A DNA stretch of 64,000 bases, from the sequence record KM190144, one strand, 5' to 3'. Below the pieces are notes generated by a model. The model did not search any database. It worked only from the letters and a program-made list of their open reading frames with translations, and had not been told where the DNA came from. The DNA is from Escherichia phage Av-05. The number at the start of each line of letters is the position of its first letter. The first letter of the stretch is position 1. The position numbers and the translations under genes were made by a program. Of this stretch, positions 9,121-64,000 are shown in pieces.

Positions 9121-9126
9121 TATAAA

Positions 9127-9151: not shown

Positions 9152-9161
9152 AGGAGGATTA

Positions 9162-45825: not shown

Positions 45826-45928
45826 AATTTAACCACACAGGGAGGCTAACGCACGTAGTCTCCCATATGTCCCCATTTCAGGGACTATGTTATAGTAGTC
45901 CTAACAAAACAACAAAATGGAACCTAAA

Positions 45929-46192: not shown

Positions 46193-46252
46193 AGGTATAC
46201 AAGCCTATAGGACTATGTTATAGTAGTCCTATTAAAACATGAGGAGAATATT

Positions 46253-46558
46253 ATGAAATTAGGCGAAACCAACCGAATTGGTCTTTTTACAATATTTGCA
46301 TCACCTTTTTACGCAGCTCTTTCTGTTGCAGTATTACAAAAGGCTTACGATATGGATGGTGTTCCTGGTTTTGTATTCTTATCACCATTTTTATTATTCG
46401 TCGGGGCTTTGTTATTATATGCCACGACTAGTTTTGACCATAACGTCTGGGTTAATTATAAATGTAAATTGTCTGAAGAAGAACATGCAGAAGCTCGTAA
46501 AAAAGCTATTGAATCTACCAATCTAGAAAATTTCATTAAAGAATGCCGAGGAAAATAA
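46253..46558 (+). CDS. membrane protein
   Basis: hydrophobic helices. Confidence 0.3.
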   Translation: MKLGETNRIGLFTIFASPFYAALSVAVLQKAYDMDGVPGFVFLSPFLLFVGALLLYATTSFDHNVWVNYKCKLSEEEHAEARKKAIESTNLENFIKECRGK

Positions 46559-46559
46559 T

Positions 46560-47737: not shown

Positions 47738-47970
47738 GTATAGCAATTTACATTAAATCAGAATCATGTGATAGTTATCTGTACACATATGATAAAGATG
47801 TGTCAGAAGAAAAAATCAAAGACGATCTTAATATGGACCTTGATATGTTCTGTCCTATTGCAGATTACAAACTTGCGGTTTCTAATAGTGAAAGTCCATC
47901 TAAAGAAACGCGCATTGAAGAATTTATGTCCGAATTAATGGCCAAATCATGGGACCGAGATGATGAGTAA
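47719..47970 (+). CDS. hypothetical protein
   Basis: 83-codon ORF. Confidence 0.3.
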   Translation: MQEFEMSIAIYIKSESCDSYLYTYDKDVSEEKIKDDLNMDLDMFCPIADYKLAVSNSESPSKETRIEEFMSELMAKSWDRDDE

Positions 47971-48418
47971 GAAAAATAAAGTGAAAGAACTATCAGCCGG
48001 TATTATCTTCATGACAAAAGATAAAGAGTTATTCATGGGCCGTGTAACTGGTTCTCGTCCTAAAGGTGCATTAGCTCATCGGTGGGATATTCCTAAAGGC
48101 CGTGTCGAGCCAGGTGAATCTCCTATTGAAGCCGCTATTCGTGAATGCGAAGAAGAAACTGGGTTTACACAATATGACCCTGCCTTCCTGAAAGACCTAG
48201 GCGAACATCATTACTCAGACAATAAGAATATTCATCTATTCCAATATACCATCCCTGTAGAGCACGAGCAATTCAGAAACAGTGTTTGTAATTCCTATCA
48301 TACATTCCCAGACGGACGACAGATTCCTGAATTTGATGCATTCGCTTTAATTAAACCTTCTCAATGGGAATATGTAATGGGCAAATCATTATATAAGGTG
48401 CTCACTACCATCCTATAA
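47960..48418 (+). CDS. nudE: Nudix hydrolase
   Basis: Nudix box GRVEPGESPIEAAIRECEEETG; immediately upstream of e as in T4. Confidence 0.6.
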   Translation: MMSKKNKVKELSAGIIFMTKDKELFMGRVTGSRPKGALAHRWDIPKGRVEPGESPIEAAIRECEEETGFTQYDPAFLKDLGEHHYSDNKNIHLFQYTIPVEHEQFRNSVCNSYHTFPDGRQIPEFDAFALIKPSQWEYVMGKSLYKVLTTIL

Positions 48419-48425
48419 GTAATAA

Positions 48426-48451
48426 ATACCTCCTATAAACGTAGGAGGTAT
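48426..48451 (+). promoter_or_regulatory. SD-sequestering hairpin with late-promoter-like TATAAACG in the loop
   Basis: perfect inverted repeat ATACCTCCTA/TAGGAGGTAT; 3' arm is the ribosome-binding site of e. Confidence 0.5.
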
Positions 48452-48452
48452 T

Positions 48453-48941
48453 ATGAATATATTTGAAATGCTTCGTAATGACGAAGGTCTTAGACTGACT
48501 TTATACAAAGACACCGAAGGCTTTTGGACGATTGGCATAGGCCATTTAGTAACAAAGAACCCGTCTTTAGCCGTAGCTAAAGCTGAACTTGACAGAATGA
48601 TCGGTCGTAAATGCAACGGTACAATTACCCTTGATGAGGCTGAAAAGCTATTTAATGAAGACGTCGATAAAGCCGTTCGCGGAATCTTGGGTAATGCTAA
48701 ACTTAAACCGGTATATGATTCTTTAGATGCGGTTCGTCGATGTGCATTGGTCAATATGGTCTTTCAAATGGGTGTAGCAGGCGTTGCTGGTTTTACTAAT
48801 TCTCTTCGTATGCTTCAACAGAAACGTTGGGATGAAGCGGCAGTAAATCTAGCCCAATCTAAATGGTATCGTCAGACACCTAATCGCGCGAAACGCGTAA
48901 TCTCAACATTTAAAACAGGAACTTGGAAAGCGTATATATGA
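48453..48941 (+). CDS. e: T4-type lysozyme (endolysin)
   Basis: about 80 percent identical by eye to T4 lysozyme (MNIFEMLR...EGLRL...YKDTEG...TIGIGHL...). Confidence 0.9.
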
Positions 48942-49219
48942 AAACATACAGTGAATTTTTATCAGAATCTATTCTTAACGAAGCTACTGACACATTTGCA
49001 ACTAAGCTAGGTGCAGCTTTAGTTGAAGCTGAAAGTCTATTAGCACGTATTTCTGAACTTGCCAGTAAGATAGATACTCGCAAATTTGAGCGCACCAGTG
49101 ATATCGTTAAGCTTGAAGCACTGCTGCGTATGTGCGATAAACCGGAAGAAATCGCTAAGAACGGCTCGTTAATGAAACAACGTCTTGAAAAATATATTTC
49201 AGGCGCTTCAGAAAAATAG
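48938..49219 (+). CDS. internal-protein-like protein
   Basis: N-terminus [11 protein letters not shown]; ATG overlaps the e stop (ATGA). Confidence 0.5.
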
Positions 49220-49220
49220 T

Positions 49221-49250
49221 GTTTACTTCCTCCAAGGGTTTTGATACTAT
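49221..49250 (+). promoter_or_regulatory. T4-early-type promoter
   Basis: -35 GTTTAC, 17-18 nt spacer, -10 TACTAT; spacer is inverted-repeat partner of the denV SD. Confidence 0.5.
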
Positions 49251-49277
49251 ACATCTATCAACTACTTGGAGGAAATT

Positions 49278-49691
49278 ATGACTCGTATCAATTTAACACT
49301 TGTTTCTGAACTGACCGACCAACATCTTATGGCTGAGTATCGTGAATTACCTCGTGTATTCGGTGCAGTCCGTAAACATGTTCAAAATGGTAAACGTGTA
49401 AAAGATTTTAAAATCTCTCCAACATTTATTTTAGGCACGGGCCACGTAACATTCTTTTACGACAAACTCGAATTTTTACGTTTACGTCAAATCGAGCTAA
49501 TAGCTGAATGTTTGAAACGTGGTTTCAAAATCAAGGACACGACAGTCCAGGATATTTCCGACATTCCTGTAGAATTTCGTAATAATTATGTCCCGTCCGA
49601 AGCGTCCATTGCGATAAGTCAAGCACGCTTAGATGAAAAAATTGCTCAACGTCCCACTTGGTACAAATACTATGGTAAATCAATTTACTAA
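49278..49691 (+). CDS. denV: endonuclease V (pyrimidine-dimer glycosylase)
   Basis: near-identical by eye to T4 endonuclease V ([12 protein letters not shown]...[16 protein letters not shown]...). Confidence 0.9.
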
Positions 49692-49697
49692 GGAAAA

Positions 49698-49958
49698 ATG
49701 AAAATGTATCAAGAATTTATCACTGAAGCGGATGCCAAAGACCCCAAATTTAAAGTTAAAGCTTTCATTGGTGATGCGGAAGACTTTGGCTCATTAAAAC
49801 GTAATGGGTATTCTTTCTTAGGTGGCGATGGTAAAGAAATCAACACCTATGCAAAACGTAGTGAAATTGCTTATGTTGTAGCAAGTCCTAAAGTAGATGC
49901 TGATGATATTGGATACGATTTTAACAACTTCGGAATTATTTCTGGCGGTAAAGCTTAA
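49698..49958 (+). CDS. internal-protein-like protein
   Basis: N-terminus MKMYQEFITEA. Confidence 0.5.
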   Translation: MKMYQEFITEADAKDPKFKVKAFIGDAEDFGSLKRNGYSFLGGDGKEINTYAKRSEIAYVVASPKVDADDIGYDFNNFGIISGGKA

Positions 49959-49961
49959 ATT

Positions 49962-49991
49962 GTTTACGCTTAAGTATTAATATGGTATAAT
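49962..49991 (+). promoter_or_regulatory. T4-early-type promoter
   Basis: -35 GTTTAC, about 18 nt spacer, -10 TATAAT. Confidence 0.45.
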
Positions 49992-50021
49992 TACTCTATC
50001 AAAACAAACAAGGAAACAAAA

Positions 50022-50600
50022 ATGAAAACATATAAAGAATTTATCGCCGAGGCCTTTGCAGGAAAAGCTCAAGGCATTAATAAGGACGAGTGGAATTATC
50101 GTGGCGGAAATGGTTTTGACCCTAAAACTGCTCCACTTGAACGATATCTAGCCACAAAAGCTTCTGATTTTAAAGCCTTCGCTTGGGAAGGACTACGCTG
50201 GCGTAACGATCTAAATATTGAAGTTGACGGACTTAAATTTGCTCATATTGAAGATGTTGTTGCTAGTAACTTAGACGCAGCTTTTGTTAAAGCCGACAGT
50301 GACCTTCGTCGCTGGAATTTAAAACTGTTCTCTAAACAAAAAGGCCCGAAGTTTGTGCCTAAAGCAGGTAAATGGGTCATTGATAATAAATTGGCTAAAG
50401 CTGTCAACTACGCTGGTCTTGAATTTGCCAAGCATAAATCATCATGGAAAGGTCTTGATGCAATGACTTTCCGTAAAGAATTTGCCGATGTTATGGCTAA
50501 AGGTGGCTTTAAGGCAGAAATAGATACCTCTAAAGGTACGTTTAAAGACGCTAATGTTCAGTACGCTTACGCCGTCGCTAATGCGGCCCGTGGTAATTAA
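50022..50600 (+). CDS. internal-protein-like protein
   Basis: N-terminus MKTYKEFIAEA matches the T4 capsid-targeting sequence. Confidence 0.5.
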   Translation: MKTYKEFIAEAFAGKAQGINKDEWNYRGGNGFDPKTAPLERYLATKASDFKAFAWEGLRWRNDLNIEVDGLKFAHIEDVVASNLDAAFVKADSDLRRWNLKLFSKQKGPKFVPKAGKWVIDNKLAKAVNYAGLEFAKHKSSWKGLDAMTFRKEFADVMAKGGFKAEIDTSKGTFKDANVQYAYAVANAARGN

Positions 50601-50629
50601 TAAGGCCTATTTACATTTAAAGGAAACAT

Positions 50630-50959
50630 ATGAAAACGTATCAAGAATTTATCACTGAAGTTACATTATCTGCGGAACAGAAAGCTGCTATCGAAGAAGG
50701 TAAAAATCCCAAAGTAACATATAAAGTAAATGGTAAAGGCGTTTTTGATGGCTTGGTTCAAGACCCTGAATTGAAAAAAGCTCTTTCTAAAACTAATGCA
50801 TACTTTGCTCCTAAATTTAACGCAGCTGGTGTACTTATTGGATTGGATGTATTCAACTCTAAAGGTGTTCTATCTAATGCCTTTGGTTATGCCGCTAACA
50901 AAATTACCAAAGCCGCATGGGAATCCAATACCAAACAAGCTCAAAAGCCTAGAGTATAA
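50630..50959 (+). CDS. internal-protein-like protein
   Basis: N-terminus MKTYQEFITEV. Confidence 0.5.
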   Translation: MKTYQEFITEVTLSAEQKAAIEEGKNPKVTYKVNGKGVFDGLVQDPELKKALSKTNAYFAPKFNAAGVLIGLDVFNSKGVLSNAFGYAANKITKAAWESNTKQAQKPRV

Positions 50960-51133
50960 TTCTTGCCTAATAAAGGGAAACGCAACCTCTCCTCATGAAC
51001 GTCGAGTCCTCTGAGTGATGTACCTTTTCCAACCTGTAATAAGGTCGAGCCCAAGTGCGGTAATGGGTTTACATAGCGAGTCGAAGGACCTAACATGTGC
51101 CATGGAATGGCCCCAACCTAAAAGAGAAACTAA

Positions 51134-51673
51134 ATGAGAACATTTTTAACCGGACCTTATCTATCCCTGATGAATGCTTTTACACACCATTCTGATGCTA
51201 GAGTAGAAGAAATTTGTAAGAACGGTTATGCCCCACCATTTGAAGACGTACTCAAGCAGTACTGTACACTTCGTTTAGACGGCGGCAGACAATCAGGTAA
51301 ATCGACCGCAGTAACTAATTTTGCTGTTAATTGGCTGTATGATGGCGGAACAGTTATTGTTCTTTCTAATACTTCAGCTTATTCTAAAATTTCTGCTGGC
51401 AACATTAAAAAAGAATTTTCTCGTTATTCTAGCGACGATATTCGATTCCGTTTATTTACTGATTCTGTTCGTAGTTTTATTGGCAATGAAGGTTCTAAAT
51501 TCCGTGGATTAACGCTTTCTCGTATTCTATACATAATTGACGAGCCTATTAAAGCTCCTGATATGGATAAGATTTACAATGTACATATTAAAACAGTCCA
51601 ACACTGTTGCAAAAGCAAATATTGCAACGGCGGTAATGCTCGTCCTCAATTTTTTGTGATTGGAATGCAATGA
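51134..51673 (+). CDS. P-loop NTPase-like protein
   Basis: Walker A GGRQSGKST and Walker B-like ILYIIDEP. Confidence 0.4.
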   Translation: MRTFLTGPYLSLMNAFTHHSDARVEEICKNGYAPPFEDVLKQYCTLRLDGGRQSGKSTAVTNFAVNWLYDGGTVIVLSNTSAYSKISAGNIKKEFSRYSSDDIRFRLFTDSVRSFIGNEGSKFRGLTLSRILYIIDEPIKAPDMDKIYNVHIKTVQHCCKSKYCNGGNARPQFFVIGMQ

Positions 51674-51978
51674 TGACCACTATTGAAGTTTTTGAGTATT
51701 GTTATAACAGCCCAGTATGCAATAAAAGGGCTCTTGTAGAAAATTACGAGATTTACCATTTTAAACCTAAACGATATCGTTTGACTAAAGGTCCGTTCGC
51801 AGGGCAGCAGGTTCTTTGTACTGCTCCTAATGCACGACTGATGACTAGTATTCCGCATTTCAAAATGGAATTTATTGATGGGCCATTTAAGGGATTAATC
51901 ACTCAAAGTTTAATGGCGTTTAATTCCGACCCATTTTTGATTAAAGAAAAAACTTGGATAAATTTATTTTCTAATTGA
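51670..51978 (+). CDS. hypothetical protein
   Basis: 102-codon ORF. Confidence 0.3.
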   Translation: MMTTIEVFEYCYNSPVCNKRALVENYEIYHFKPKRYRLTKGPFAGQQVLCTAPNARLMTSIPHFKMEFIDGPFKGLITQSLMAFNSDPFLIKEKTWINLFSN

Positions 51979-51984
51979 GGTTAT

Positions 51985-52347
51985 ATGAAAGCATATCAAA
52001 TTCTTGAAGGTACACATAAAGGCACTATTTATTTTGAAGACGGTACTCAAGCCCGGATTATTGTCTCTAAGACTTTTAAAGAAGACGCTATTGTAGACCC
52101 GGAAATTTTCTACGGTTTGAATGCCCGTGAAATTGAAATTGAACATCAACCTAAAGTTAAAATTGAAGGTGGTCAACATCTGAACGTTAACGTTCTGCGT
52201 CGGGAAACTCTGGAAGATGCAGTTAAGCATCCGGAAAAATATCCGCAGCTGACCATCCGTGTATCCGGTTATGCAGTTCGCTTTAACTCTCTGACTCCGG
52301 AACAGCAGCGCGACGTTATCGCTCGTACCTTTACTGAGAGTCTATAA
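51985..52347 (+). CDS. autonomous glycyl-radical cofactor (GrcA/YfiD-like; T4 Y06I-type)
   Basis: C-terminal 60 aa with RVSGYAVRF glycyl-radical motif appears identical to E. coli GrcA; codon usage shifts mid-gene. Confidence 0.7.
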
Positions 52348-52571
52348 TGGCTAAATTGATTATAGAAGGGTCTGAAGATGTTTTAAAATGTTTTGCCGCC
52401 TGGTTTAGTTGCTCAGGCGAGCAATCATTCACTGAAGCATTTAGAATGGGTGATATTACTGGAAACTATCCGACAACTGATATCATTGTACGTGGATATG
52501 GTATTAATGAGCCTATCCAATTGGTCGAATATGACCTTGCCACCGATGAGGAAATTCCTTATGTCGATTGA
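52347..52571 (+). CDS. hypothetical protein
   Basis: 74-codon ORF. Confidence 0.3.
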   Translation: MAKLIIEGSEDVLKCFAAWFSCSGEQSFTEAFRMGDITGNYPTTDIIVRGYGINEPIQLVEYDLATDEEIPYVD

Positions 52572-52827
52572 AGATATTAAAGGCTACAAGCCACATACCG
52601 ACGATAAAATAGGTAAAGTGAACGCTATTAAAGATGCAGAAGTCCGTCTTGGATTGATGTTTGATGCTCTGATTGAAGAAGCCTATATCTTGAAAGAAAA
52701 TGAAACAGAGCATCAAACCAAAGAAGATATGGATGCAGTGCAGGCTCTTAAGTACGCTAAGCAACATCTAAAAGAAGCCAGCATGTGGGCCTGTCGTGCA
52801 GTATTTCGTCCTGAGGAAAAATACTAA
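52560..52827 (+). CDS. hypothetical protein
   Basis: start at ATG 52560 overlapping the upstream gene end. Confidence 0.3.
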
Positions 52828-53042
52828 TGGCTTCTACTATTACTGGGTTATTGGACTTCCAGGAAAAGGTCAACAAAATTTGTAGTGAATACTTAAAGTA
52901 TCTTGAAGAAGACCTTGAAGATTGTAAGGAAGAAGGCGAAGAAGATTATGCTGACCAGCGTCGTCGCCAAATCGAAGAGATGAGACATTTCGCCGATATG
53001 GTATCTAAAGAATCTTGGACTTTAACTCCATTTTATCAATAA
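52827..53042 (+). CDS. hypothetical protein
   Basis: 71-codon ORF, acidic. Confidence 0.3.
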   Translation: MASTITGLLDFQEKVNKICSEYLKYLEEDLEDCKEEGEEDYADQRRRQIEEMRHFADMVSKESWTLTPFYQ

Positions 53043-53046
53043 AGTA

Positions 53047-53075
53047 GTTTACTTCTCCTCTAGTTGTGTTACTAT
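53047..53075 (+). promoter_or_regulatory. T4-early-type promoter
   Basis: -35 GTTTAC, 17 nt spacer, -10 TACTAT; spacer TTCTCCTCTAGTTG is the perfect inverted repeat of CAACTAGAGGAGAA at the regB SD. Confidence 0.55.
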
Positions 53076-53103
53076 AGACCTGTCAACTAGAGGAGAAATA
53101 AAA

Positions 53104-53562
53104 ATGACTATCAATTCGGAAGTTTTTATCCGTCGCAATAAACTCCGTCGAATCTTTGAAACGGAGTTTCGTCAAATCAATGCCGGTATAAAAGATGCTG
53201 CAAAGTCTCTTGGACTACCAGGCTTTCATATCAAGTATTCTCAACATCTCTTAGATCGTGCCATCCAGAGAGAAATAGATGAGAATTACGTTTTTGAATT
53301 ATTTCGTAAAGTAAAAAATCACGTTAAAGAAGTTGCAGAATTTTTATCAATGCCGGCACGTCCAGATGTTGATGAAGATTTTGTCGAAGGTGTCGAATAC
53401 CGCCCAGGCCGTTTAGAAATAACTGATGGAAATCTTTGGTTAGGCCTTACAGTTTGTCGCGAAAATCCGGCATTCAAAATGAAGACTCTTCAATGTAGAA
53501 TGGCTATTATTAACAATAAACGACTACCAGGAAAAGCTTCTAAAGCAGTGATTAAAATCTAG
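53104..53562 (+). CDS. regB: RegB endoribonuclease
   Basis: close match by eye to T4 RegB (MTIN.EVFIRRNKLRR...YSQHLLDRAIQREIDE...LQCRMAIIN..RLPGKASKAVIK). Confidence 0.85.
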   Translation: MTINSEVFIRRNKLRRIFETEFRQINAGIKDAAKSLGLPGFHIKYSQHLLDRAIQREIDENYVFELFRKVKNHVKEVAEFLSMPARPDVDEDFVEGVEYRPGRLEITDGNLWLGLTVCRENPAFKMKTLQCRMAIINNKRLPGKASKAVIKI

Positions 53563-53570
53563 AGGTAAAC

Positions 53571-54113
53571 ATGAGAAAAGCACTACTCGCTGGTCTATTT
53601 GCTCTTTCATTATCAGCACATAGCTCCGAGCATACTTTTAGTAATGTCCAACTCGATAACTTGAATTATGCTTATCAGTTTGGGGAACAATTTTCTAAGG
53701 ACGGAAAATTTAAAACGCATGAAAATATGCATAAGAAAGGACTTGGATACATAATGGCCGCAATACTATGGCAAGAATCATCTGCCGGTATTAATCTTAA
53801 AGATAAGAAAGGTCACCATGCGTATGGAATGTTCCAAAACTATCTACCAACAATGAGGGCAAGAATTAACCAGCTTGGTTATAATATGACTGATGCCCAA
53901 ATTAAGAAAATGCTATCTAAGCGGTCTAATTCAGCCAGATGGGCTTATATCGAATTTTCTTATTGGTTAAATATACATAACGGGGATATAAGAAAAGCTA
54001 TATCCTCATATAATGCGGGATGGAAGACAAGTGCTGGAAGTAAATATGCTTCTGAAGTCCTAGAAAAGGCTAATTACCTTAAATCAAATAAACTACTGGA
54101 AATAAAAGAATGA
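53571..54113 (+). CDS. secreted lytic-transglycosylase-like protein (T4 vs.1-like)
   Basis: signal peptide; position after regB. Confidence 0.45.
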   Translation: MRKALLAGLFALSLSAHSSEHTFSNVQLDNLNYAYQFGEQFSKDGKFKTHENMHKKGLGYIMAAILWQESSAGINLKDKKGHHAYGMFQNYLPTMRARINQLGYNMTDAQIKKMLSKRSNSARWAYIEFSYWLNIHNGDIRKAISSYNAGWKTSAGSKYASEVLEKANYLKSNKLLEIKE

Positions 54114-54457
54114 CCAAAATGTTGGCTTTAATAGTTAGCTTGGTTTCATTTAACGCTCTTGCTAATACTACATATACTGATGTAACGGAGTATACAAACA
54201 GAACGGCGTCTGATTACTGTGGTAAAAGTCAAGAGTGTAAAGTAGATTTTTCACAAAAATTGTTATATGCGTATAAAGACGGAGAAAAAGATGGGGCGTC
54301 TAGTAGGTTCAAGGCGTCTACCTTAATTAAACGATATCATAAAAAATGGCAAATATTAGAATGCTCGGTGGCGGAACCTAAAGATAAGGCAGCATGCAAT
54401 TCTATGGTGGACCGTCTAGTTGACTCTTATACTAGAGGACTTGTAGCAAGTGATTAA
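54110..54457 (+). CDS. secreted protein
   Basis: signal peptide MTKMLALIVSLVSFNALA. Confidence 0.35.
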   Translation: MTKMLALIVSLVSFNALANTTYTDVTEYTNRTASDYCGKSQECKVDFSQKLLYAYKDGEKDGASSRFKASTLIKRYHKKWQILECSVAEPKDKAACNSMVDRLVDSYTRGLVASD

Positions 54458-54917
54458 AAACTATATCAAGGGCGATATTGTCGCCCTGTTTTCTAAAGGT
54501 AATAATATTGCTCATGGGTGCAATTGTTTTCATACAATGGGCGCCGGTGTAGCAGGTCAATTGGCAAAGGCTTATCCAAAAATTCTGGAAGCCGATAAAC
54601 TTCAAACTGAATTCGGAGACGAGTCTAAACTTGGGACTTATTCGGTTTATGAAAAATATTTTAAGACTCATAAAGCTTATTGCTTTAATCTTTATACTCA
54701 GTTTGAGCCGGGACCTAATTTTGAGTACTCTGCTTTAATGAATTGTATAATAGAATTAAATGAATTCGGAAAAAATAAGATAACAAAGCCTGTGATTTAC
54801 ATGCCAAGAATTGGAGCAGGTATAGGTGGTGGAAACTGGGATATCATTGAAGAAATTCTTGATACATATTCCACTAAACTAGAAATTGTGATTGTTGATT
54901 GGGAACCATTGTTATGA
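54450..54917 (+). CDS. macro-domain protein
   Basis: NIAHGCNCFHTMGAGVAGQLAKAYP and IGAGIGGGNW motifs; paralog of 37696-38217. Confidence 0.55.
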   Translation: MIKNYIKGDIVALFSKGNNIAHGCNCFHTMGAGVAGQLAKAYPKILEADKLQTEFGDESKLGTYSVYEKYFKTHKAYCFNLYTQFEPGPNFEYSALMNCIIELNEFGKNKITKPVIYMPRIGAGIGGGNWDIIEEILDTYSTKLEIVIVDWEPLL

Positions 54918-55126
54918 ATGTGCATTATCCTCACCCGTATGACCCAAAGAATAAAGCAGTTATTATTCGTGAATGGGAAGAAATTCGTCAGACTAAGTGT
55001 CCTATTAACACCCCTCACGATGTTGAACGTCGTTATCATGGACGCTTTATGGAATATACCTTTATTGATAAGAAAGGTCGTAAAAAGCATGTCGAAGAAT
55101 ATTGCATGCAGGTCAAATGGTTATGA
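54899..55126 (+). CDS. small conserved protein (paralog of 41007-41222)
   Basis: shared HPYDPKNKAVIIREWEE...EYTFIDKKGRKKHVEEY. Confidence 0.4.
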   Translation: MGTIVMNVHYPHPYDPKNKAVIIREWEEIRQTKCPINTPHDVERRYHGRFMEYTFIDKKGRKKHVEEYCMQVKWL

Positions 55127-55329
55127 GCCAAACAAAAATTCTTACAGGTGCTAAATGCGAAAAATGCGAATGGCCTGTAGTTTTTGCTTTATGCAATGAC
55201 GAAATGGCTTGTGATTTTGATTATTGGTGTTACTGTTCGAACAAAGGTTGTAGCAATCATAAAGGTGAAGGGTTTTACTCAGGATTTTACCCTTACCCAG
55301 ATTTCGTTAAAGAAGGTGAACCTAAATGA
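55102..55329 (+). CDS. Cys-rich small protein
   Basis: 75 aa with CxxC pairs. Confidence 0.3.
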   Translation: MHAGQMVMSQTKILTGAKCEKCEWPVVFALCNDEMACDFDYWCYCSNKGCSNHKGEGFYSGFYPYPDFVKEGEPK

Positions 55330-55508
55330 AATTGACTAAAGAAGAGAAAACTAAACTGTTCGAACTTATCCATGACCTATTGGATGAGCAAGCAGCCACC
55401 AATGCGTACGATGAATATGCTCCTTTAACAGACGAAGAATATCAAGCATTGATGGAATCATTTGACAGGAAAGAACAAGAACTCATTGACTACGTGAATT
55501 CACTATAA
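55326..55508 (+). CDS. hypothetical protein
   Basis: 60-codon ORF. Confidence 0.3.
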   Translation: MKLTKEEKTKLFELIHDLLDEQAATNAYDEYAPLTDEEYQALMESFDRKEQELIDYVNSL

Positions 55509-55517
55509 GGGACTCTT

Positions 55518-56099
55518 ATGGCTAGTTTAATTTTTACCTATGCCGCTATGAACGCTGGTAAGTCTGCTTCATTACTTACTGCCGCACATAACTATAAAGA
55601 ACGTGGCATGGGTGTATTAGTTCTTAAACCGGCTATTGATACTCGCGATTCAAAAGGTGAAATAGTCTCTCGTATTGGTATTCGTCAGGATGCCAATATA
55701 ATTACAAAAGACATGGATATCTTTGAATTTTATAAATGGGCTGCAGCACAAAAGGATATTCACTGTGTATTTGTTGACGAAGCTCAGTTCTTAACTACTG
55801 AAAAGGTGTATCAACTTAGTCGTATTGTTGACGTATACAATGTGCCGGTAATGGCATACGGACTACGAACAGATTTTAAAGGTAATCTATTTGAAGGTTC
55901 TCAAGCATTAATGGCTATTGCCGATAAGCTTGTTGAACTTAAAGGTGTCTGTCATTGCGGTAAAAAGGCCACAATGGTAGCTAGAGTCACGGAAGACGGA
56001 CTTCCAATTACAGATGGCAGTCAAATTGAAATTGGTGATACCGATAGATACGTGTCATTATGCCGGAAGCATTGGAATGATTTGACAGGGTTGTTATAA
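55518..56099 (+). CDS. tk: thymidine kinase
   Basis: MASLIFTYAAMNAGKS P-loop, VFVDEAQF, C-terminal CHCG...C zinc motif; close to T4 Tk by eye. Confidence 0.9.
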   Translation: MASLIFTYAAMNAGKSASLLTAAHNYKERGMGVLVLKPAIDTRDSKGEIVSRIGIRQDANIITKDMDIFEFYKWAAAQKDIHCVFVDEAQFLTTEKVYQLSRIVDVYNVPVMAYGLRTDFKGNLFEGSQALMAIADKLVELKGVCHCGKKATMVARVTEDGLPITDGSQIEIGDTDRYVSLCRKHWNDLTGLL

Positions 56100-56126
56100 A
56101 TACTAATATCTAACCAAGAGGTATAT

Positions 56127-56339
56127 ATGCAGCAATTAAACGAAAGACAACTTCGTAATCTTACTGTAACCCAATTGGACGAAATCCGAAGAGAATTAGG
56201 ACATTCTATTTCTCATTTAAACGAGGATATTCGTCAAACTGGTTCTAAAGCTGATTATACACGCAAGCGCAAGCTGGAAAAATACCTCGCAGATGTTAAG
56301 GCCGTTCAAAGGCGAAAAATAAATACTGGCCAAAATTAA
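56127..56339 (+). CDS. hypothetical protein
   Basis: 70-codon ORF, basic. Confidence 0.3.
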
Positions 56340-56351
56340 CAGGAGGCCTAT

Positions 56352-56654
56352 ATGGCCTTAAGAGCGATAGCTGTCATGGCGATGCTGGGGTTTTTTGCAG
56401 CAACAACTCCTATTGTTGGCACTGCATATGTTGACCCGTACTTTGATAACTTTATGGAATCAGGGATTAAAAACGTATATACTTTGTTCGAAATTCAAAA
56501 TGTTGAGAATTCTGAAAAATTTTATAAGTATATGGCAAAGCATTACAAAAATAGCCCCTGTGATGATGCATTTGAATGTCATGAACAAGGCATAAAAACT
56601 GCCAGAAAATTTGCTGAGTTCATGAAAATAAAATTAGAGCCTACATCTATCTAA
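56352..56654 (+). CDS. secreted protein
   Basis: signal peptide MALRAIAVMAMLGFFAA. Confidence 0.35.
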   Translation: MALRAIAVMAMLGFFAATTPIVGTAYVDPYFDNFMESGIKNVYTLFEIQNVENSEKFYKYMAKHYKNSPCDDAFECHEQGIKTARKFAEFMKIKLEPTSI

Positions 56655-56660
56655 TTTACT

Positions 56661-56690
56661 AGCCCCTTCCGAAAGGTTGGGGCTTTTTTG
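56661..56690 (+). terminator. rho-independent terminator
   Basis: AGCCCC-ttccgaaaggtt-GGGGCT then TTTTTG. Confidence 0.55.
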
Positions 56691-56699
56691 CATCTATCA

Positions 56700-56728
56700 G
56701 TTTACTTCTCCTCAGGTTGTGTTATAGT
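56700..56728 (+). promoter_or_regulatory. T4-early-type promoter
   Basis: -35 GTTTAC, 17 nt spacer, -10 TATAGT; spacer TTCTCCTC is complementary to the downstream SD GAGGAGAA. Confidence 0.5.
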
Positions 56729-56755
56729 AGACCTTACTTACTAGAGGAGAACGTT

Positions 56756-56935
56756 ATGTCACGTAAAGAAAAAATTTCTAAGTTAATGTTTTTGATTGAA
56801 GAGTACGCTAACGCTGTATCCGATTGGGAAAATGCCCATGGGTGTGAAGACGGTGATATCGATATCAATAAGGCAATGAAAAAGATGGCTGATACGCACA
56901 CTGAATTGCAAATGTATGTTAACGAGATTATGTGA
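56756..56935 (+). CDS. hypothetical protein
   Basis: ATG at 56756 with GAGGAG SD. Confidence 0.35.
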   Translation: MSRKEKISKLMFLIEEYANAVSDWENAHGCEDGDIDINKAMKKMADTHTELQMYVNEIM

Positions 56936-56942
56936 GGATATT

Positions 56943-57149
56943 ATGCTTTACGATTATACTGGAAAATCTGAAGACGGTGTACTTGAACTTTTACCTGAAA
57001 GCGCTGAAGATGATGATATGGTGGCGATGTTTTGTAAAAATGGTCCTGGGGATAAGGGATGGATTTATCTTCGACAAGAAAATGACTTAATTGTTTTGGA
57101 CCCTAAACAAGTTGAAGAACTTTATCAACATTTAAAACACAATCGGTAG
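56943..57149 (+). CDS. hypothetical protein
   Basis: ATG at 56943 with GAGGAT SD, overlaps the upstream stop. Confidence 0.3.
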   Translation: MLYDYTGKSEDGVLELLPESAEDDDMVAMFCKNGPGDKGWIYLRQENDLIVLDPKQVEELYQHLKHNR

Positions 57150-57180
57150 TTTACATCTTGGTAGGACTAAAAAAAAAATT

Positions 57181-57690
57181 TTAAGATGCTTCTAATTCAG
57201 ATTTAAGATCAGCAATCATCTTTTCAAAGGATTTGTTCTTAGTCAGTGTAACACCTTTAGAAAGTGCAAACTCAACTAATCTATCTTTACTACCTTTTTT
57301 ATCAGCTTCATCATTCAGAGACATTGCTTCCTCTAAAATCAGATCAATAGATAGATTTTCTTTGTCATCCTTTTTATCTTGCACTTCTACAATCTTGGCA
57401 TCAACTGCCTTACCCATACTATTTGGATTAGGAATATCTTTGTTAAAGAATACAATATAAGAACCCATACGAATAGTAGAGTGCTGTGCATCAACATCAA
57501 GACCAGACATCTCAGCAAGAGCAGTGAAAAACTCAACAGTGTTTCTGAATGCCTTGTGTTGTGTCCCCACACATAAACCATTCAAAGGCAGTCTTGCAGA
57601 TACCGCTGCATTCAATTGTGGTGCATATGCTCCGAAAAACTTAAACAGTTCCACTTTATTAGGGAAAATACGATAATTTTGATTTGCCAT
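57181..57690 (-). CDS. hypothetical protein (head-module associated?)
   Basis: 169-codon ORF downstream of the major capsid gene. Confidence 0.35.
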   Translation of the reverse strand: MANQNYRIFPNKVELFKFFGAYAPQLNAAVSARLPLNGLCVGTQHKAFRNTVEFFTALAEMSGLDVDAQHSTIRMGSYIVFFNKDIPNPNSMGKAVDAKIVEVQDKKDDKENLSIDLILEEAMSLNDEADKKGSKDRLVEFALSKGVTLTKNKSFEKMIADLKSELEAS

Positions 57691-57764
57691 AAAATCTCCT
57701 TTTATTCCTTAGTAAAAACCACTTGACAACACAGGATAAGTGGCTATTATTAAGGTCAGAATGT

Positions 57765-57794
57765 GAAAAAGGGGAGGTGATAATTCACCTCCCC
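57765..57794 (-). terminator. rho-independent terminator after major capsid gene
   Basis: 10-bp stem GGGGAGGTGA/TCACCTCCCC, followed on the minus strand by a U-run. Confidence 0.55.
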
Positions 57795-57820
57795 TCATTA
57801 GAGGTAGCATTTAAGCTATC

Positions 57821-58834
57821 TTATGCGAAAGTACCAGTAGAACGTACAACCAGTTCAGGACGGGTGTTAACCGTCAGGAAGGAAGTTTCAGATTCAACTT
57901 TCTCTTCACGCAGATATGCAGAAGATTTGTACCACAGATACAGTTCTTCAGCTACAGTGTTTGCTTCACGAACATCATCTGCCGGAGCATAATGGATCTG
58001 GAACATATCATCAATACCTTGCGGCAGGATGTATGCTTCACCATCTGGGATATATCCAGAGATGTCTTCAATGTAGGTTACGTTCTTATGAACAAACATA
58101 CGGTTGTTGGCATTCTCAGAACCCATACCCAGACGACGACGCAGCGGTTCTTGGGTAGAAGAGTAATACTGGTAAGCGTTCATGATCAGCGGGTGGGCGA
58201 TCAGAGCAGAGAACCATTTACGAGAAGCCAGAACAATGATATTATAGTTATTGCCGTTATCACCTGCATTGTCGATGATGTATGCACGAGCGTCTTTCTC
58301 AATCAGATCAGACGGGTCAACTGCAACATCTGTGAAGTTGATATTGGCAGTATGCTGGGTAACTCCCCACTCAGTAAAGTAGTTGTACTGTGCGGTCGGA
58401 TCTTGTGGAGACCATGATTTACCCATGATTGCCTGAACCATTGCTTTTTCTTTCAGTTGTTCATGAGAAACGCGAATACGCTTAACTACGCGAGCAACTA
58501 CGTCTTCAACAGTTCTCGGAGCGTCCGTAGTGAAGTATTTACGGAAGTTCTGAACATCTGCCGCAGTGATCTGACGATCCAGAGGGAAGAACGGAATGTT
58601 GAAGTTCTTGATTTGGGCTTTTTCACTACCCACATAGTTACGTTCTCCACCACGACGACGTGCAGGAATATCCGCAACAATTTCGTCAACACGCTCAACA
58701 CGAGCAATTGTGGTTTCACCATGGTAGGCGGTGAACAGATCCATGTTGGTAATCAGGCGATACTGACGTGGAACAAGTTCCAGTGCTGCGCCAAGGTTTA
58801 CGATTTGAAAGTCGTTAGTCTGTACTGCTGCCAT
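57821..58834 (-). CDS. major capsid protein (lambda gpE-like)
   Basis: 337 aa; several segments parallel lambda gpE; highly expressed-type codon usage. Confidence 0.6.
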   Translation of the reverse strand: MAAVQTNDFQIVNLGAALELVPRQYRLITNMDLFTAYHGETTIARVERVDEIVADIPARRRGGERNYVGSEKAQIKNFNIPFFPLDRQITAADVQNFRKYFTTDAPRTVEDVVARVVKRIRVSHEQLKEKAMVQAIMGKSWSPQDPTAQYNYFTEWGVTQHTANINFTDVAVDPSDLIEKDARAYIIDNAGDNGNNYNIIVLASRKWFSALIAHPLIMNAYQYYSSTQEPLRRRLGMGSENANNRMFVHKNVTYIEDISGYIPDGEAYILPQGIDDMFQIHYAPADDVREANTVAEELYLWYKSSAYLREEKVESETSFLTVNTRPELVVRSTGTFA

Positions 58835-58857
58835 TTATAAATTCTCCTTGATGCAAA

Positions 58858-59280
58858 TTAGCTGATAGCCGTTACTTTAATATCTTCAGAACCATCGAAA
58901 TATTTATCGGTGATTTTCAGACCTCTTGCCTCAAGAGCTTTAATAGCAGTCTCGTCAATTCCTGTGGAACCATCAGAGAACACAATCTTGGACTTATTCA
59001 GAGTAAGGCCACGAACAGCAACAACAAAATTATATTTGGTTCCTACTTTGAACGGGGTAACAGGTTCGTATGCAGGTACAAGGTCATGGTCAACCAGAAC
59101 ACCATAAGCCTGAGCAGCATCACCAGATGCAGCTAAAGTACCGTCTTCTTTAACGATCATACCTGCTTTCATACCTGCTGCGTACTGAATCTCCATTTCC
59201 TTGAAGCTATAGCCTTGGTCAGAAGAATCAACTTTACCCAGTACAATGTCAGAGTAGAAACCTTGAATTGGATTAGCCAT
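58858..59280 (-). CDS. head decoration protein (gpD-like)
   Basis: 140 aa between scaffold and capsid genes. Confidence 0.45.
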   Translation of the reverse strand: MANPIQGFYSDIVLGKVDSSDQGYSFKEMEIQYAAGMKAGMIVKEDGTLAASGDAAQAYGVLVDHDLVPAYEPVTPFKVGTKYNFVVAVRGLTLNKSKIVFSDGSTGIDETAIKALEARGLKITDKYFDGSEDIKVTAIS

Positions 59281-59298
59281 TTATTTAATCTCCTCGAA

Positions 59299-60300
59299 TT
59301 ACGCTTTCATTGCAGCCGCTTCGCGTGCACGGGCGCGAGCTTTTTCTACGTTGGCTTTCAGAATATCTTCAGCAGACTTATTAATGTCGTCTGTAGTAGC
59401 TTCAGCACCGGAACCATGTTCAGCGGTAGCAAATTCTTTTTTCACAGTCTTAACTTCTTCTTCAAGTTCCTTAATACGAGCCTGTGCTTTTTCCAGAATA
59501 GCCACCACAGGAGCATTAGCTTTCTCGATAATAAAGTTAGCCAGTGCTTCATGATCAGAGTCAGCAGCGAAAGTGAAAGTTTTTGCTTTATTCAGAGCTT
59601 CTTTCTTTTCCACTTCAACGGCAGCTTTGATAATTTCATCAGCTTTAGCAGCTTTGGCTTCAGCTTCTTCTAATTTTTTAACCAGATCCAGATATTCCTG
59701 AGATTTGGTCACATCAACATTATTAGACACTGAGGTCTCCTCTTTTTTCTTGGATTTATCAACTACAGGTTTTGAACCTGCTTCTTTGACGACCCCAGTC
59801 ACCTGGAGATCTTTATCATCACCCTCTACGAAAGTGACTCCTAATTCTGCAACACCTTTTTCAAACAATTGTTGTAATTTTAGCAACTCATATTGTTTAG
59901 CGAGATCTAATTCTTTACCTTCGTGAGCAGCTTTAGCAATTGTTATTGCTTGCACGCGTTCTTCAAGAAATTCTTGATGTTGTGCATTCCATGCCACAAT
60001 AAATTCATCATCAGGGTTTTGCGCCGCATCGTATTCAAGTTCAGTTTCAAAACCAAGAAGTTTTGCCAGCAGTTCTGCATCATCATGCCACATGTAGAAG
60101 AATCTACGCAGAAATTCTTCAAAGCTCATTGTAACAGTTACTTGCTGGAGGGCTTTGATAACGTCTTTAGTAAGCTGCTCAGGTTTAAGATCAGACTTCA
60201 TAAGAAGTGATACTGGTCTTAAATTAGCAGAATACCCTTGAAGCTCATGACACAGTGCAATACCCTTCTCCTTAATGGCTTTGGCCTTTACAATTGTCAT
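59299..60300 (-). CDS. scaffolding protein
   Basis: 333 aa, Ala/Glu/Lys-rich coiled coil; between protease and decoration genes. Confidence 0.5.
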   Translation of the reverse strand: MTIVKAKAIKEKGIALCHELQGYSANLRPVSLLMKSDLKPEQLTKDVIKALQQVTVTMSFEEFLRRFFYMWHDDAELLAKLLGFETELEYDAAQNPDDEFIVAWNAQHQEFLEERVQAITIAKAAHEGKELDLAKQYELLKLQQLFEKGVAELGVTFVEGDDKDLQVTGVVKEAGSKPVVDKSKKKEETSVSNNVDVTKSQEYLDLVKKLEEAEAKAAKADEIIKAAVEVEKKEALNKAKTFTFAADSDHEALANFIIEKANAPVVAILEKAQARIKELEEEVKTVKKEFATAEHGSGAEATTDDINKSAEDILKANVEKARARAREAAAMKA

Positions 60301-60986
60301 TCGTCCTCTTCCTCTGTTTCATCTAGATAACCCAGACATTCGATACCGAAATCAACATCTGTTATTTCTCCTGTTGCTGTGTCCACACGCCCAGAGCACT
60401 GGATGCTTAAACCACCAACAACATTTGCTTTTTTCAAATCCCACAAAGCAGGATCATTATACTTAACCTTGGCTACCCATGTTCCTGCTTTAATTATCTG
60501 TTCCGTCCCAATGACCACAACATCCAGTTCTTCTTGAATCCAAGTTTTTTCAATAGTGAATGCATCAGTCTCGCTAAGATGGAATAAATTTTCTTTCACC
60601 AAACCAGCAGCGAGTGCCTTATCGTAGGATTCTTTTGCCTTTACTATCGTTTCAGGAGACATCCACTCTCCATGGGCATCCTTAGTGTTTGGCTCATAAA
60701 TAACCTCATAAGAGATCATTTGTTCCGCATCTTTTTGGATATTAACTACAGATGTTTCTTTATTAAGACTCTTTTTAAGATTTAGAGATAAAACTCTCTC
60801 AGAAGCCTTTTCTACAGAAATTTCTGGAGAATGGCCTGAGGCAATCAGGCCATTAGCGATATTCAGTATCTTGCTCTTTTGAACAAGAGACAGATCAGAT
60901 ACTGATGAAGGAAGGTCTTTAATGCTTTTAAATTTCATTATTTCCCCATTAACAGTTATTTTAACATCGTTCTTTTTCTTTTGCAA
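60297..60986 (-). CDS. prohead protease
   Basis: 229 aa between portal and scaffold; acidic C-terminus. Confidence 0.45.
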   Translation of the reverse strand: MQKKKNDVKITVNGEIMKFKSIKDLPSSVSDLSLVQKSKILNIANGLIASGHSPEISVEKASERVLSLNLKKSLNKETSVVNIQKDAEQMISYEVIYEPNTKDAHGEWMSPETIVKAKESYDKALAAGLVKENLFHLSETDAFTIEKTWIQEELDVVVIGTEQIIKAGTWVAKVKYNDPALWDLKKANVVGGLSIQCSGRVDTATGEITDVDFGIECLGYLDETEEEDE

Positions 60987-61007
60987 GTTATTTCAGAAGG
61001 TTGAGTG

Positions 61008-62549
61008 TTAATTCTCTAAATTAGAAACAGAATTATCCCTGACAGTAGATATTTTTGATGTTCCGTTACCTGTTGATCCTGGTGTCATACCATCTCCAGA
61101 ACGGCTTACATCCTGACCAAGAATTTGCAACAATTCATCAAGCTCCATATCTTCAGGGATTTCTTCGTCAAAGCCACCAACCTCAAGAATTTTATTAATA
61201 ACTGTAGGTGTTTTAGGCAAATACCCAACAGCACCAATACGCTGAACAAATTTAGAGAAGCCTTCCATATCGACTTCTTGAATAAGTCCAGGTTTCAGTC
61301 TTGGCATATCTTCGTCAGACAATCTTATATCGTTCAAAGCAAGAAGTTGAGGTATTAAGTTCTTATTGAACGCCTCAACAATAATATCAATATCTCTCTG
61401 GACAAAATGACCATGAATAGTTTGTTTTGATTCTGAAAGATTATAAGATCCTTGCCCATCGTTACCTAAGTTAATAAACCCCGCACCAAAACGATCAAGA
61501 ATAGCCTTCTTGCGAGAATTAACAAGCTCTTGAGTGCTGTATTGTTTACCTGCCCCATCTATCCCTTTGAGGGACATTTCATATTGTTTGCCACCTTGGT
61601 TATTGAGATCAGATGGTAAAATAAAGTAGGCTTGTTCTCCAGCATGTGCGTTAGCAGCATCTGCCATTAATCCTTGCACCATAGCAGCTTCTGGTGATGT
61701 TGGATCTATTGCTGCTTTATTAAGGATTTGGGAAGGTATTTTAAGTTCTATGATACCACCAAGGTCTTTAGATGCCCCAATAGTCTCCAAATTTTCTATA
61801 AGGATCTTCTCTCGGAATGCCCTATAACAACCCACTAATGGTGATACCCCAGCCGGGTTTGATTCTGTGCCTCCCAAACTCATTATCATTAACTTATTAA
61901 CTGGAATAAAAACATCATCACCATTAGTTAATTTACGGATAATGCTTAAAGTGTCACCTAGCATTCCGTTTTGTAAATTAGAGAAAGCCAAACTGCTTTG
62001 GTTAATGCCCTTCAGCGTCTTGCCATCGGCATCAAATACCCAAGGCTTTGATCTAGAAAGGCTGCACTGTGGCCTGAATGCAATTTTATCAATCGTAATA
62101 TACCCAGCATACCTTGAAGTCTCTGACTCAGTACGATAAACTTTTTCAAATATCGAAAACCCATACTCATTGAACGTTGCTGCGCTTCGGGCTATATCAC
62201 GCAGAGTTTGTTGGTTAGCAAGATTCTTCAGCGCATACTCCACAAACTCAGCAGCTTTCTTAGATTTTCTGCTACCTCTGTTGTACAAGATTTTAAAATC
62301 ATTGAATGCTTTGGTCACAAAGACATACTTTGTATCAAGGGCTGTGGAAACTGTATGGTCTTGCTTCATGGCTTCAACAGTGGCGATGAAATTAGGCCAT
62401 CTCAACTCCTTAACTTTCATAATCTCTGATTCAGCCCTAAGTTGAGAAAGAGCACCAGAGCCTAACTCTCCGGTGCGAAGACGACTAACAGCAAGTCTCT
62501 CATTACCTGCTTTAGAAATCTCTTCTTGTTGTGCAAATCTTGTTGACAC
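61008..62549 (-). CDS. portal protein
   Basis: 513 aa immediately downstream of terminase fragment. Confidence 0.55.
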   Translation of the reverse strand: MSTRFAQQEEISKAGNERLAVSRLRTGELGSGALSQLRAESEIMKVKELRWPNFIATVEAMKQDHTVSTALDTKYVFVTKAFNDFKILYNRGSRKSKKAAEFVEYALKNLANQQTLRDIARSAATFNEYGFSIFEKVYRTESETSRYAGYITIDKIAFRPQCSLSRSKPWVFDADGKTLKGINQSSLAFSNLQNGMLGDTLSIIRKLTNGDDVFIPVNKLMIMSLGGTESNPAGVSPLVGCYRAFREKILIENLETIGASKDLGGIIELKIPSQILNKAAIDPTSPEAAMVQGLMADAANAHAGEQAYFILPSDLNNQGGKQYEMSLKGIDGAGKQYSTQELVNSRKKAILDRFGAGFINLGNDGQGSYNLSESKQTIHGHFVQRDIDIIVEAFNKNLIPQLLALNDIRLSDEDMPRLKPGLIQEVDMEGFSKFVQRIGAVGYLPKTPTVINKILEVGGFDEEIPEDMELDELLQILGQDVSRSGDGMTPGSTGNGTSKISTVRDNSVSNLEN

Positions 62550-62564
62550 GAATTATCCCCTCTG

Positions 62565-63350
62565 TTATATTCTTTTATACAAGGTAGGAGCTACAATTTT
62601 TGGAATAACAACAGGTTTGACTATTTCTTCTTTTTCAAGATAATTTATCCCAGAAGAAATGGCGTCGACCCAATCGTCTTTTCTTGTCGTCGTACTCCTT
62701 TCCCCATTGAACTTTTCAAGCTCTGTCATAAGGGCTTCATAAGTTTTAGGATCAAAACTATCACGAACTATTCTCACCATACCTGCTTGAGCAAGTTTTG
62801 CAAACGGTGTGAATCGTGTTAATTTTGATTTATTGCTTGGTGTAGGATCTTTTTCTACTGTAAACCCTTCCGCTATTAGTTCACGGGAGCTTGTTAAAAA
62901 TTCACTTATTCCTGCTTGTCCTGGGTCAACACTGAAAATTATGGTGACATCATCACCATCAAAATAAGCCTGTTTCTTAATGATAACATCACGTTCCCCA
63001 GCTTTTTTACAGAATCTTCCCTGCGTTTGAGTCGAATATCTACCATCATCAAAAAATTCAGGACAATAATCACCAGACAAGTAGTAAAAACCATCATTGT
63101 CTTTACTTACCTTAACAGATGCTGTAAAGTCAGGATATCTGTTTCCAGATGTTCTTTCTGTACCTGCTTTATCATACGGACGAACAGATACAACACCGAG
63201 AGGTAAGCAGGGAACCTCTTTTAAATAAGATCTCTGGAAATAGTTTGCCCCTTCAGGTCTTGCATTCCAGTTCCCATGCAACAACTGGGCTTTTTCTACC
63301 TCTGGAAGACCTTCAAGGAATGCTAGATAATCTGGGTTATTCTCCAGCAT
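62565..63350 (-). CDS. terminase large subunit, nuclease-domain portion (N-terminal ATPase portion not contiguous)
   Basis: RNase H-like motifs incl. ...RKDDWVDAISSG...; no Walker A/B; reading frame open only to 63374. Confidence 0.55.
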   Translation of the reverse strand: MLENNPDYLAFLEGLPEVEKAQLLHGNWNARPEGANYFQRSYLKEVPCLPLGVVSVRPYDKAGTERTSGNRYPDFTASVKVSKDNDGFYYLSGDYCPEFFDDGRYSTQTQGRFCKKAGERDVIIKKQAYFDGDDVTIIFSVDPGQAGISEFLTSSRELIAEGFTVEKDPTPSNKSKLTRFTPFAKLAQAGMVRIVRDSFDPKTYEALMTELEKFNGERSTTTRKDDWVDAISSGINYLEKEEIVKPVVIPKIVAPTLYKRI

Positions 63351-63398
63351 GGGAGGATTATCGAATCCTTGTATTCAAGGTTGGACGCAACGCCAACC

Positions 63399-63450
63399 CC
63401 CGCACCGCTACGTGCTGCTGCATGTCACCAGCAGCACGTAGTGGTGCGGG
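63399..63450. repeat. 22-bp palindrome with 8-nt loop (one G-T pair)
   Basis: CCCGCACCGCTACGTGCTGCTG / CAGCAGCACGTAGTGGTGCGGG; each arm continues into sequence resembling the 3' end of pol intron 2. Confidence 0.8.
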
Positions 63451-63864
63451 ATAAGAGTAGCGATCTTATCTGAACAAAAAACGACACAATTCACATGGTC
63501 ACAGATAGATTATCTGATATCTCGTCTACGTTCAAACTCTAAATATCCGAGCAGGATGGTTATTTCTTGTAACCCTGATCCAGATCATAAGATCAAGGAG
63601 TTGATTTCTTGGTATTTAGATGATGAGGGATATCCTATACCTGAACGCGATGGGGTGATTAGATGGTTTATAAGACGTGACGGGGAGTTTATCTGGGGTG
63701 AATCAGAGCAAGAATTAATTGAAAAGTATTGGGATGGCAAGGATGAGAAAAGAAAGCCTAAACCACTTTCATTTTCCTTCATTTCCGCAACCATTAAAAG
63801 AATAGTGGCTTCATGCAGTAATGCATGTCGAATAACTTCGTTAATTGCTGGAAACTCTCAATAA
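63442..63864 (+). other. open frame on opposite strand with possible terminase ATPase motif-III-like segment
   Basis: frame open 63442-63864; ...SRMVISCNPDPDH... loosely resembles terminase ATPase motif III; ends with TAA directly before intron-like core. Confidence 0.3.
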
Positions 63865-64000
63865 GAGACAATCAGCAGCGAAGCGTCTATTGACGAACGT
63901 TCAACGACTATCCCGTAAGGGAGTAGAGCGCAAGCTAATGGCGTTCGAAAAGCGAAGCACCCATTATGTGTGGGTGGTGATATAGTCTACTCTGCATGGT
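63865..64000 (+). mobile_element. group I intron-like core on + strand, truncated by window end
   Basis: Q-like caatcagcagcg, R-like cgttcaacgactatcc, S-like gatatagtctac in plus orientation, near-identical to pol intron elements. Confidence 0.5.

Follow-up and report, generated by a model that had tools for sequence, protein, structure and literature searches.

At the end of the stretch of DNA analysed here (the window; 64,000 nt from the sequence record KM190144 of Escherichia phage Av-05), two terminase-like reading frames lie on opposite strands, arranged head to head around a palindrome, and each of them adjoins what resembles a piece of an intron. How could parts of a single terminase gene come to be arranged in this way? 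An earlier note on this DNA, which had drawn attention to the layout, offered three explanations: an inversion between the palindromic hairpins of two introns, trans-splicing of separately transcribed halves, or an assembly fold-back artefact. Here we identify the pieces on either side of the palindrome, compare their order with that in related phages, and weigh these explanations against the composition of the record as a whole.

Results

TerL exons and group I introns in the window

The intron-less terminase (TerL) of phage 4MG (L018 5067-6566, minus strand) served as the ruler for the exon bounds, and the features obtained are collected in Table 1. The nuclease ORF at 62565-63350 on the minus strand (261 aa) had been described as a terminase without its ATPase part, and Terminase_6C was indeed its only Pfam match (E 1.9e-8). 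The true start of this last exon is 63366 (FDNPPM...), as against the ATG at 63350 of the called ORF, with the N-terminal FDNPPMLENNPDYL at 63365/63366. The plus-strand frame at 63442-63864, in which a terminase motif had been suspected, is likewise terminase-like: it matched Terminase_6N (E 1.6e-5), and its SCNP segment falls within the alignment to 4MG. A segment of the ATPase domain (Terminase_6N) and the nuclease domain (Terminase_6C) are both recognised in the window, and the exons with Walker A and B lie outside it. The two translated pieces align to adjacent residue blocks of 4MG TerL (130-233 and 234-499), and the terminase-like exons seen on opposite strands are consecutive exons of one TerL gene, the last on the minus strand and the middle one on the plus strand. 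An Ile codon is split between them (AT|A), and joining them yields an uninterrupted frame, ...SFISATI-FDNPPMLENNPDYL, that is 87-89% identical to 4MG TerL 130-499; the ligated exon junction is predicted to read ...GCAACCAT|ATTCGATAAT.... The middle exon region is 96% identical to TH18 65869-65472 (reverse strand).

The group I intron elements noticed earlier in plus orientation were recovered by the Rfam covariance model RF00028, which matched 63785-64000 (plus strand) with 71.2 bits against a gathering score of 50; the match lacks the 3' end of the intron because the window stops there. This intron, inserted at SATI|FDNP, is here called intron C, and the one preceding the middle exon, at DEG|TQF, intron B. 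A full-length homologue of intron C (L009 9705-9933) scored 95.8 bits, and intron B in the same contig (L009 8985-9352) 67.4 bits. In the window the 5' part of intron C is without a homing-endonuclease ORF and stops 10 nt into a repeat, R, that is described below; the 3' end of the same intron, on the minus strand, includes the 3' half of a P9-like hairpin as well as two small hairpins and closes with a G at 63367. The tail of intron B is homologous to the 3' tail of intron 1 of phage RudolfGeigy. The boundaries follow the group I rule, with an exon-terminal T at 63794 and an intron-terminal G at 63367 (minus) and 63483 (plus), and removal of the introns restores the frame of the intron-less homologue. 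Profile matches and boundaries alike indicate that TerL is split by group I introns, and self-splicing is predicted. Three further RF00028 matches below the gathering score of 50 (47.5, 41.1 and 24.5 bits) lie at 21486-22863 (minus strand) in the DNA polymerase gene region; they agree with the split DNA polymerase annotation of TH18 and with the pol introns mentioned in the earlier note.

Table 1 Features of the window, with their coordinates, strands and supporting matches
Feature	Position	Strand or orientation	Evidence or remarks
rV5-like block 1	1-45885	reversed	TH18 43361 down to 71
Hairpin motif ATGTCCCCATTTCAGGGAC ending rV5-like block 1	45867..45885	+	
T4-like (Mosigvirus) block, 11.3 kb	45886-57168		Foreign DNA between rV5-like blocks
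rV5-like block 2	57169-63434	forward	TH18 58377-64645
Last TerL exon (RNaseH-like nuclease domain, stop codon included)	62565..63366	-	Pfam Terminase_6C; alignment to 4MG TerL 234-499, 89% identity
3' end of group I intron C, cut from its own 5' part	63367..63429	-	Matches L009 9916-9985 and TH18
3' tail of group I intron B (DEG|TQF site), final G at 63483	63430..63483	+	Near-identical to L009 9351-9403, L008 and L014
TH18 TerL middle exon and intron parts	63484-64000	reversed	
Middle TerL exon, 311 nt, TQFTW to SFISATI, SCNP motif inside	63484..63794	+	tblastn vs 4MG TerL 130-233, 87% identity; Terminase_6N
5' part (206 nt) of group I intron C, P1 to 5' half of P9	63795..64000	+	RF00028; collinear with L009 9705-9924

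TerL in related phages

At least 23 public contigs encode a last-exon product identical to the 261 aa of the window, and in all seven of the long independent ones (L008-L014, from ENA and NCBI assemblies) the TerL exons are collinear on one strand. The rV5-like parts of the window are 95-97% identical to the nearest GenBank records, TH18, 18-1-2, 19-1-2 and 24-2-1 (Vequintavirinae; 24-2-1 is entered as Avunavirus), which match it in the last exon, portal and head genes. Records of the TH18 type (96-97% identical) also encode the identical last-exon protein, and on one and the same strand they have this last exon, an HNH-containing intron, the middle exon, a further intron and the first exon; TH18 differs from the window in having no intron at DEG|TQF but one 33 nt upstream instead, in the HNH gene within its intron C, in its collinear exons and in the absence of T4-like DNA. 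The TerL exons of RudolfGeigy (MZ501102) also lie on one strand and are annotated as a three-part join, with two full-length group I introns (RF00028; 84 and 96 bits). The window thus shares with rV5 and other Vequintavirinae (PMC3606486; MZ501102) the same gene and the insertion sites DEG|TQF and SATI|FDNP with the split Ile codon, and with RudolfGeigy and rV5-like phages the same intron family (RF00028), in which a homing endonuclease is optional in the downstream intron. An HNH homing endonuclease gene is present in intron C of TH18, L008, L010, L011, L013 and L014 and absent from that of the window, L009 and L012 (compared over window 63795-64000 with 63367-63426, and over L001 8534-9220). 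The TerL introns of rV5, of which one bears a homing endonuclease, have been known from the literature since 2013 (Kropinski et al.; PMC3606486), and, judged by its sequence, the TerL of the window is an ordinary, already described intron-split gene of an rV5-like phage of the Vequintavirinae.

What sets the window apart from rV5-like TerL genes is that the middle exon and the flanking intron parts stand on the opposite strand, which we attribute to mis-assembly (see Discussion). Window 63429-64000 aligns unbroken, at 95-96% identity, to the coding strand of L009 and L012 directly 5' of the last exon. When 63430-64000 is followed by the reverse complement of 62565-63426, the un-flipped sequence aligns to L009 9351-10786 in one HSP of 1,433 nt (97.9% identity) and to L012 in one HSP of the same length (97.6%), the two pieces overlapping by 3 nt (GGT). 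Read along one strand, the gene would pass from group I intron B through the middle exon and group I intron C to the last exon. The geometry of an inversion by exchange between the hairpins of two introns, as proposed earlier, correctly describes this difference between the window and its relatives.

The palindrome and the shared repeat

The 22-nt palindrome reported at 63399-63450 is present, with arms (63399-63420 and 63429-63450) that are complementary at 21 of 22 positions (95%) around an 8-nt spacer, and its predicted hairpin energy is -48 kcal/mol. The arm occurs at two sites in the 64 kb, both of them here, where none was expected (100 shuffles). Comparison with introns B and C of the relatives bears out the proposal that each arm is the 3' region of one of two related group I introns. 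R of intron C, in reverse complement, forms the left arm; R of intron B forms the right one, which continues into the intron B tail and then into the middle exon. A single base (C versus T) distinguishes the arms, and they therefore derive from two different intron copies.

The repeat R is 38 nt long (TCTGCATGGTGACATGCAGCAGCACGTAGTGGTGCGGG) and common to the paralogous introns B (DEG|TQF) and C (SATI|FDNP). It contains the P9-like hairpin CTGCATG-GTGA-CATGCAG, at which the Rfam model ends, and downstream of it the two introns diverge into distinct 3' tails. Both introns carry R in six of the seven long contigs, exactly in L008, L009, L011, L013 and L014 and with one base off in the intron C copy of L012; the intron C copy of the window also differs at one position. 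In the relatives the two arms are direct repeats approximately 575 nt apart on one strand.

The position of the mis-join is 63429/63430, inside R, and the block 63430-64000 starts 21-22 nt before the end of R of intron B. Its other end, the last base of the window, lies 10 nt into R of intron C, at the exact point where it would rejoin the left piece; an arbitrary cut of the window would give such a coincidence with a probability of about 1e-4, and it is expected if a contig ends there. The junction sequence, ...CTGCATGTCAC|CAGCAGCACG..., lacks 4 nt (CATG) that a clean exchange through the hairpin stems would have retained, and each junction end directly follows a CATG.

The window junction was not found in IMG/VR, JGI metagenomes or GTDB genomes (scanned with a 41-mer and a 22-mer), in E. 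coli genomes or plasmids (searched by megablast), or in 50,697 phage records, and the palindromic pattern of a clean hairpin-exchange inversion had 0 matches in IMG/VR. The exact 38-mer of R is absent from IMG/VR, so this database is uninformative for the lineage. Exact-protein look-ups of the 102-aa plus-strand ORF and of a 144-aa ORF beside the first junction of the window returned no record.

Composition of the record

A T4-like Mosigvirus block within rV5-like sequence (Table 1) shows the record to be chimeric, and by this composition the window is best described as a two-phage chimera, rV5-like and T4-like. Window 46206-57169 is 99.98% identical to phage phiC120; the T4-like block has a GC content of 37.6% as against 40.1% in its flanks, and its genes include tk, regB, denV, lysozyme and internal head protein. 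The near-identity to phiC120 suggests that a related sample was involved; phiC120 was itself assembled de novo in Geneious from 100-bp reads, and unusual rearrangements were reported for it (PMC8022965). The two rV5-like blocks run in opposite directions relative to each other, and the module of structural genes is severed after the gene adjoining the major capsid gene. Block sizes descend along the window (at least 45.9 kb, then 11.3, 6.3 and 0.57 kb), which is the pattern of a concatenated contig list, and there are no N characters at the joins.

The first rV5-like block ends in the hairpin motif ATGTCCCCATTTCAGGGAC. Contigs with TH18's version of the gene beside this join (six, collapsed to one place) end approximately 140 nt past the gene, and the TH18 record starts where those contigs end. 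Inverted copies of ATGTCCCCATTTCAGGGAC in TH18 lie at 74-92 (minus) and 79427-79445 (plus), where TH18-type scaffolds and other public contigs end, and the motif is possibly a repeat of terminator type, or a physical genome end may be close by. Each boundary of the T4-like block falls within the repeated T4 early-promoter hairpin motif GGACTATGTTATAGTAGTCC, and the block is composite in its own right: 45882-46239 matches one G2469 locus and is followed by a jump of approximately 7.4 kb to the phiC120-like part. This internal jump, at 46206-46239 (and 45882-45912), runs through a 34-nt copy of the GGACTATGTTATAGTAGTCC motif; either a natural deletion of DNA between promoter repeats or a collapse during assembly could explain it. 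The third block starts directly after the T4-like DNA at an A10 homopolymer (57169-57180), where TH18 has A11, and this start gives the impression that a read or contig stopped in the homopolymer.

Discussion

We consider it highly likely that the head-to-head layout of TerL is a mis-oriented terminal block in a chimeric, concatenated assembly, a reading that includes, as a sub-case, a chimeric fragment formed during library preparation. The assembly would have broken at both copies of R, and the 571-nt block between them (63430-64000: intron B tail, middle exon and 5' part of intron C) would have been attached backwards at the end of the sequence; flipped in this way, the block would place the 3' parts of the two R copies head to head and so create the 22-nt palindrome. 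The join was presumably made by an assembler, by a scaffolder or by manual contig concatenation, and we infer that the record ends at window position 64000. This reading builds on the identity of the exons and introns, on their collinearity in every relative examined, on block ends that coincide exactly with R, and on a window that is chimeric. Two Logan contigs (k=31), L016 and L017, have their first base exactly 30 nt before R ends, and R is a reproducible assembly breakpoint in this lineage. The window resembles mis-joined or concatenated draft phage contigs in that its blocks end at repeats, hairpins and homopolymers, that it includes a block from a foreign phage, that block orientations are inconsistent and sizes descend, and that other assemblers break at R. 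It differs from them in that the junction fits no single k-mer overlap rule and the joins are made without Ns; the junction sequence, shortened as it is by 4 nt, speaks against a simple assembler error. Three particular ways of making the join were considered. A de Bruijn unitig or pure k-mer overlap was rejected, as the three block ends are situated 30/31, 21/22 and 10 nt into the repeat and no single k fits. A seeded overlap mis-join is not supported, since no word common to R and its reverse complement exceeds 7 nt. A restriction-ligation chimera is conceivable from the CATG at both junction ends, a pattern that the other junctions do not have on both sides.

Among the explanations put forward earlier, it is an artefact in general that fits the evidence, and neither the fold-back form of it nor trans-splicing. 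A simple fold-back (snap-back), in which the plus-sense block would be a reverse-complement duplicate made at the hairpin during library preparation or in a duplex long read, would account for a palindrome at the junction and for its position near a contig end. Yet complementarity stops after 22 nt, the right arm has T where the left has C, and the right arm enters the intron B tail and the middle exon, whereas the sequence to the left contains no reverse complement of either. Rather than a duplicate, the block is the upstream neighbour that is otherwise missing; the two flanks of the junction belong to different loci and are unrelated beyond the arms, and we regard a fold-back as refuted by the sequence and its probability as negligible. 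We give just as little credence to trans-splicing, in which each exon would have a transcript of its own, one from either strand, and intron C, divided at the L9 loop, would reassemble in trans from its halves and so ligate the exons. Group I introns that splice in trans are known to accept interruptions at peripheral sites of this kind, and the split here does lie in a peripheral hairpin loop, L9; the organellar examples, such as mitochondrial cox1, also have exons on different strands and intron halves broken in a peripheral loop. Here, however, the close relatives, at 96-98% identity, are all cis-spliced and collinear, and the layout is unique to one chimeric record. The 3' fragment of intron B starts inside the P9 3' stem and is therefore left without an arrangement for its pairing partner. 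A promoter consensus scan upstream of the plus-strand exon gave 2 sites against 2.9 expected, neither suitably placed, consensus scans being weak evidence.

A genuine inversion of the 571-bp cassette, in the phage or in a subpopulation of it, deserves more weight, although we still judge it improbable. It could have come about through hairpin or cruciform exchange at P9 of introns B and C or through replication template switching, either of which would leave a long quasi-palindrome. The geometry is exact, with both breakpoints in the hairpin-bearing R, the C versus T difference between the arms is that of two different intron copies, and the loss of 4 nt by the palindrome centre resembles the centre deletions that long palindromes undergo. 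Set against this, an antisense middle exon would destroy an essential gene, so that such a phage could not be the propagating majority, and the junction is unique among all assemblies examined. Moreover, GGT stands at both block ends, whereas after a conservative inversion the window should finish in 1-2 different bases; the same record contains unrelated joins to T4-like DNA; and the far breakpoint would have to coincide by chance with the window end. Nor does the segment look like an invertible segment of the Hin/Gin/Cin type: its sole inverted repeat has arms 8 nt apart at one block end rather than flanking the block, the same sequences are direct repeats in the relatives, and the annotated genes around it in the relatives include no recombinase. 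The narrower proposal, that the cassette with the middle exon was inverted in phage DNA specifically by exchange between the P9 hairpins of the two paralogous introns, is to our minds very improbable. If it were true, intron hairpins would be recombination hot spots able to flip an exon, and the result would be a class of defective genomes or, with both orientations coexisting, a switch or a trans-spliced essential gene; a real inversion would, against the evidence, be a rare case of intron-hairpin-mediated exon inversion in an essential phage gene.

With a mis-oriented terminal block as the preferred reading, the opposite-strand arrangement is very probably not biological. The gain for biology is small, as group I introns, optional homing endonucleases and an intron-split, collinear TerL are already known and documented for rV5-like phages. 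What the analysis does provide is a flag on the source record, a chimeric and mis-oriented contig concatenation from at least two phages (rV5-like and T4-like), which is unsuitable for inferences on gene order, recombination or host range, together with a recurrent assembly breakpoint in this lineage, namely paralogous introns with a common 38-nt hairpin-bearing repeat.

The relatives show further variation in TerL. Some carry three TerL group I introns: in L009, intron A lies at 8778-9021 and intron B at 9055-9403 (region 8778-9403), with a 33-nt mini-exon between them (LQYTFIGFDEG) that holds the Walker B motif. Intron B is absent in TH18 and L010, and intron A is absent in Vequintavirus phages. 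In addition, the first TerL ORF of the relatives (L009 7700-8782) has an in-frame insertion of approximately 241 aa within the Walker A P-loop, GGAAG-[CLSKDHEVLTPSGW...VVVTGN]-SGKSY. A Pfam scan of this ORF for intein domains gave no match; the ends of the insertion are intein-like (Cys1, a terminal Asn and a +1 Ser), and on these sequence features we regard it as a putative intein, which is longer in TH18 (448-aa ORF).
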